Below are positions 41,873 through 42,328 of a stretch of DNA of 64,000 bases, one piece after another. Positions within the stretch are counted from its first letter, which is position 1. Each line of letters starts with the position of its first letter. Below the pieces are notes generated by a model. The model saw nothing but the letters and a program-made list of their open reading frames with translations, had not been told where the DNA came from and made no database searches. The translations under genes and the position numbers were made by a program. The stretch is from Escherichia phage JY01. The stretch lies in sequence record OR995200.1; one strand, given 5' to 3'.

Positions 41873-42328
41873 TTATTTTAAATCGTCTGCCCAATCAAGC
41901 TTAAGAGGTTCTTTGTATTCACGATCTAATACGACCGGAATTTGTACATCACCGCTAAATGATAAGGGCCCAACATTATAAGACAATGTTATATGCGGCG
42001 TGTAATCGTCAAAATCATGTGTAGCACCTAGCGCCCGCGCATACATGTGTCGACAGCGCAGATATTCAGAATCTAGTACAAGTACAAGAGTAGATCCATC
42101 TTGTGTTTTCCATACTTCTAAATGTCCAGAAGAAGCTACTTCAAAACTTCCGCTTGATGGAACATACGGAACATTTACTCTTGAATAACATATAGTCGAA
42201 TGAATTTTTTCTCTAGGAACTGGATTAGGAACACGTAAAGAGCGCTGAAGTTCTTCCAGCGCATCAAGTGTTAATTCTGAAAACTTAGCTGCTACATAAA
42301 GACCCGTTGAAAAGTCTTTAAATTCCAT
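41873..42328 (-). CDS. 57B: 2H-phosphoesterase 57B (Acb1-type anti-CBASS nuclease family)
   Basis: 151-aa ORF with two H-x-T/S motifs (HSTI, HITL), located just upstream of 57A. Confidence 0.7.

Follow-up and report, generated by a model that had tools for sequence, protein, structure and literature searches.

The 64,000-nucleotide stretch of Escherichia phage JY01 (OR995200.1) analyzed here, referred to as the window, harbors a 151-aa ORF which is almost certainly acb1 (gene 57B) of a T4-like phage of E. coli or Shigella, with a predicted action against CBASS of the T4 type. Its product was identical to T4 gp57B (NP_049750.1) at 151/151 residues with no gaps (BLASTP; T4 residues 2-152), and both catalytic motifs are intact; it thus has the sequence of the characterized T4 anti-CBASS nuclease, minus one extra methionine. 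This alignment had been proposed as a check in an earlier note on the same DNA, which from the letters alone had read the ORF as an Acb1 candidate. Judged by its sequence, the acb1 of this phage is already known, as its product has the sequence of T4 gp57B, with which the Acb1 family was founded.

Table 1. Positions of acb1, its neighbors and the Acb2 homologue in the window
Feature	Position	Strand	Evidence or remark
Gene 1, dNMP kinase (synteny anchor)	42570..43334	minus	Pfam PF21448 DNMK, E 2.8e-106, residues 15-246
57A, tail-fiber assembly chaperone	42328..42570	minus	Pfam PF17594 GP57, E 5.2e-51
acb1 (gene 57B)	41873..42328	minus	Predicted 151-aa 2H-phosphoesterase-type cyclic-oligonucleotide nuclease
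Catalytic motif H43-S-T45	codons about 42194-42202	minus
Catalytic motif H112-I-T114	codons about 41987-41995	minus
PeSL-type promoter/stem-loop, acb1-proximal copy	41820..41888	minus	Starts within the last acb1 codons
Internal head protein gene, Ip5 type	41542..41799	minus	phrog_3499, E 3.7e-50
PeSL-type repeat, second copy	41489..41557	minus	3′ end of the internal-protein gene, includes its last codons
trna.4	41286..41531	minus	phrog_1692; order as in T4 and Sf23
trna.3	40904..41323	minus	ORF listing; order as in T4 and Sf23
trna.2	40611..40901	minus	ORF listing; order as in T4 and Sf23
11 tRNA genes	38985..40006	minus
Acb2 (T4 Vs.4) homologue	30402..30665	minus	94% to T4 Vs.4; Pfam Acb2_Tad1_hairpin, E 1.4e-19

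Coding sequence and protein family

In the translation of the window, the ORF opens with ATG and comprises 151 codons closed by a TAA stop. Relative to the T4 reference record (NC_000866), its DNA carries 12 differences, of which 12 are synonymous and 0 nonsynonymous. At the sequence level, such a pattern is what strong purifying selection on a working protein leaves behind.

A regular-expression scan of the product returned exactly two H-x-[TS] motifs, HSTI (residues 43-46) and HITL (residues 112-115), which are the two that the earlier note had named. Residues H43, T45, H112, and T114 are H44, T46, H113, and T115 in T4 numbering, and the tetrad is the same as that of T4 Acb1. The offset of one residue from the published T4 tetrad arises because the first methionine annotated in T4 is absent here. 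At the 57A/57B junction (42326..42331, minus strand), the phage reads ATA ATG GAA and T4 reads ATG ATG GAA. The 57A stop is TAA here rather than the TGA of T4, and for this reason 57B lacks the earlier of the two ATGs of the T4 annotation, which leaves its product one residue short of the annotated T4 protein. This suggests that the second ATG is sufficient as the 57B start codon. The missing residue lies well away from the active site, and its loss probably has no consequence.

The product matched the Pfam family PF23474 (Anti-CBASS protein Acb1) over the entire profile (E 2.6e-60, profile positions 1-144 of 144), scoring 202.7 bits against a curated cut-off of 27. Among solved structures, residues 8-148 matched Acb1 of Erwinia phage FBB1 (PDB 7T26, apo, and 7T27, with 3′3′-cGAMP) at E 4e-62 with 68% identity over 141 aligned residues. 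In the alignment with 7T26, HSTI and HITL fall in the same columns as its HTTI and HITL, and both HxT motifs thus survive careful alignment to T4 as well as to 7T26. FBB1 Acb1 stems from a different phage and host and differs by surface substitutions throughout and by HTT instead of the HST seen here, whereas it shares the HxT/HxT motifs and the C-terminal lid region and provides a structural template for the 2H fold. The C-terminal residues of the acb1 product correspond to the substrate lid. Via its likeness to FBB1 Acb1, the product is predicted to fold as a compact 2H phosphoesterase bearing a C-terminal lid.

The full-length profile, the HxT/HxT tetrad, and the 57B gene position all place the product in the Acb1 family. 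The proposal in the earlier note of a 2H phosphoesterase of the Acb1 type is supported by PF23474, the 7T26 match, and the T4 identity, and no feature of the sequence speaks against it. Given a full-length Pfam Acb1 match and purely synonymous differences from T4, the predicted gene is not a chance ORF. Acb1 alone was returned by a Pfam scan (E up to 0.1), with no match to LigT, 2′-5′ RNA ligase, or any other 2H family. In the INPHARED collection, a protein at least 99% identical is encoded in 498 phage records, and recognizable homologues occur in 1470.

Known biochemistry and alternative readings

T4 gene 57B was identified as Acb1 through activity-guided fractionation, the protein being purified by tracking 3′3′-cGAMP cleavage (Hobbs et al. 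2022, PMC9117128). Acb1, a small 2H phosphoesterase, needs no metal; its ligands are the CBASS cyclic di- and trinucleotides 3′3′-cGAMP, cUA, cAAA, and cAAG, and its U-shaped ligand pocket is shut by the C-terminal lid (PMC9117128). The enzyme strains the ligand so that the ribose 2′-OH attacks the 3′-5′ phosphodiester, with the scissile phosphate positioned over the HxT/HxT tetrad (T4 H44/T46/H113/T115), and it cuts 3′ of adenosine by way of a 2′,3′-cyclic phosphate intermediate, yielding linear products, e.g., GpAp (PMC9117128). Both cGG and the 2′-5′ linkage of 3′2′-cGAMP are resistant, and an H44A/H113A mutant is inactive (PMC9117128). Activation of the CBASS effectors Cap5, Cap4, and CapV is blocked by Acb1, and T4 without acb1 grows normally when CBASS is absent and shows a >300-fold defect against active CBASS (PMC9117128).

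The Acb1 encoded here would cleave the CBASS cyclic-nucleotide signals as the T4 protein does. With the signal removed, Cap4, Cap5, and CapV would stay inactive, and the phage would escape abortive infection.

It is very improbable that the product is instead an RNA ligase or an RNA 2′,3′-cyclic phosphodiesterase (LigT/2′-5′ RNA ligase-like) acting on RNA ends, even though phrog_755 carries the label “RNA ligase” and RefSeq re-annotations give this name to T4 57B and its orthologues. The 2H fold and the HxT/HxT motifs are common to LigT-type enzymes of the 2H superfamily, and the label is inherited from this fold-level likeness. Acb1 shares with LigT/2′-5′ RNA ligase and CPDase the two HxT/S motifs and an acid-base chemistry via a 2′,3′-cyclic phosphate, but its substrates are cyclic oligonucleotide immune signals, not RNA ends, and it has a separate Pfam family. 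The specific Pfam match is to that family and not to LigT. Moreover, the same T4 protein was found by its cleavage of 3′3′-cGAMP, and T4 without acb1 loses both the cGAMP-cleaving activity and CBASS resistance (PMC9117128). On these grounds, the “RNA ligase” annotation was rejected, and the name gives way to Acb1, which was identified by experiment. The acb1 product may have a side activity on RNA 2′,3′-cyclic ends.

Even less probable is an acb1 that is present but silent or decaying, e.g., untranslated through loss of the first ATG annotated in T4; this ATG is indeed ATA here and acb1 is inactivated in some relatives, as by a nonsense mutation in Bas43 (PMC13577387), but the ORF is unbroken and starts with an ATG of its own at the 57A stop, its substitutions relative to T4 are all synonymous, and the same 151-aa protein is found in hundreds of phages, and this reading was therefore rejected.

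Gene neighborhood and the internal-protein slot

The window belongs to Tequatrovirus. Over the 2 kb around acb1, its identity is 99.8% with Shigella phage Sf23 and Escherichia phage vB_EcoM-Sa45lw and about 99% with wV7, AR1, RB51, and RB68. Gene order is as in T4 and Sf23, namely gene 1, 57A, 57B, the internal-protein gene, trna.4, and the tRNA genes. Compared with these two phages, the ORF is indeed the positional equivalent of T4 57B that the earlier note took it for, lying between 57A, which it directly follows, and the internal-protein slot. The note had placed it upstream of 57A; it is instead downstream, as transcription of the minus strand, which carries both genes, reaches 57A first. 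For gene 1, the listed ORF starts with TTG, and the T4-equivalent start is probably an internal ATG some 13 codons in.

57A immediately precedes acb1 in the same transcription direction, and the 57A stop and the acb1 ATG overlap by one base (TAATG). Such an overlap is typical of translational coupling and suggests it here. In the window, acb1 would be co-transcribed and translationally coupled with 57A.

The internal-protein gene is bracketed by two 69-nt direct repeats with 86% identity. Each copy contains TTTACA-N17-TACTAT, with promoter-like sites running from 41859 to 41831 and from 41528 to 41500. Both match the consensus TTTACW-N17-TAYWAT described for the promoter-early stem-loop (PeSL) elements of PST and T4 (PMC4122927). 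A 13-bp hairpin (fold -20.5 kcal/mol, z -4.6) encloses the promoter-like site of the acb1-proximal copy. A generic terminator scan found no canonical terminator 3′ of acb1, where the hairpin lacks a T-run and is part of the PeSL-type element. The acb1-proximal element probably serves the 57A-57B message as its 3′ hairpin and the internal-protein gene as its early promoter, and the 69-nt repeats probably mark the boundary of a recombination cassette.

The internal protein between the repeats has 85 aa and is annotated as Ip5 in RB51, wV7, and PP01. Its N-terminus, MKTYKEFATETIITE, is of the capsid-targeting type (MKTYKEF...IITE) and resembles the start of T4 IPI. However, the similarity to IPI found by BLASTP is confined to residues 1-22, i.e., the capsid-targeting region, and T4 IPI was consequently rejected as the identity of this neighbor, which is an internal head protein by family and of the Ip5 type. 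T4 IPI is an inhibitor of GmrSD, and this role is not transferable to the Ip5-type neighbor because there is no similarity beyond residue 22. By homology, the neighbor is probably packaged and injected. The statement that acb1 lies next to an injected internal protein thus stands in so far as an internal head protein by homology is present, with the correction that it is of the Ip5 type and not T4 IPI.

The content of this slot varies among close relatives, with ipI downstream of 57B in T4, Ip5 here, and Ip7, Ip9, and Ip5 together in RB32 and RB33. This variation is consistent with PeSL-mediated cassette shuffling.

Further along the minus strand, the tRNA cluster comprises Arg, His, Asn, Tyr, Met, Thr, Ser, Pro, Gly, Leu, and Gln genes (11 versus 8 in T4) and leaves no room for segB, the homing endonuclease gene which interrupts the tRNA cluster of T4. 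A 174-aa ORF (40093..40617, minus) lies between the cluster and trna.2 and is absent at that position in T4. It belongs to phrog_2290 (E 2.3e-68), a family of unknown function, and has no Pfam match.

A second gene of the internal-protein kind may be represented by a 157-aa ORF (32259..32732, minus) with the capsid-targeting-type N-terminus MKTYQEFITE, which falls in phrog_3155 (“internal virion protein”) and Pfam DUF7412. It is located just below denV (32742..33158), which is on the plus strand and has e (33218..33712) as its neighbor in this phage. Homologues of T4 ipII and ipIII were not found within the window.

Counter-defense genes and their meaning

T4 carries both Acb1 and Acb2 (PMC10312549). 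The same combination of an Acb1 nuclease and an Acb2 cyclic-nucleotide sponge is encoded in the window. Both proteins neutralize CBASS signals, but Acb2 sequesters them whereas Acb1 cleaves them, and their folds are unrelated. The two would be expected to act jointly in this phage.

Elsewhere in the window, the homologue of T4 Tk.4 (28252..28716, minus) is 59% identical to its T4 counterpart, compared with 94-100% for neighboring genes. In T4, Tk.4 is annotated as a phosphatase with an A1pp motif. Going by these identities, the homologue appears to be an allele that has diverged locally or been exchanged.

Many database records still list acb1 as “hypothetical protein” or “RNA ligase”, and its identification here has value for annotation. 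It aids host-range prediction and raises no new biological question.

The PeSL-bracketed slot next to acb1 might be a swappable cargo site for injected anti-defense proteins (IPI, Ip5, or Ip7, Ip9, and Ip5), a reading which we put forward tentatively and consider rather doubtful. If it is true, acb1 and the slot would constitute a small counter-defense islet, and the 85-aa Ip5-type protein would be injected and would inhibit a host defense other than GmrSD.

Type II Panoptes senses the depletion of cA3 and restricts Acb1-expressing Tevenvirinae, from which escapers arise as acb1 mutants (PMC13577387). By analogy with these related phages, the phage studied here may be vulnerable to guard systems which sense the loss of cyclic nucleotides. 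Possession of both the Acb1 nuclease and the Acb2 sponge predicts that the phage evades a broad range of CBASS systems whose signals are 3′-5′-linked cyclic nucleotides, together with a possible sensitivity to guard systems of the Panoptes type.
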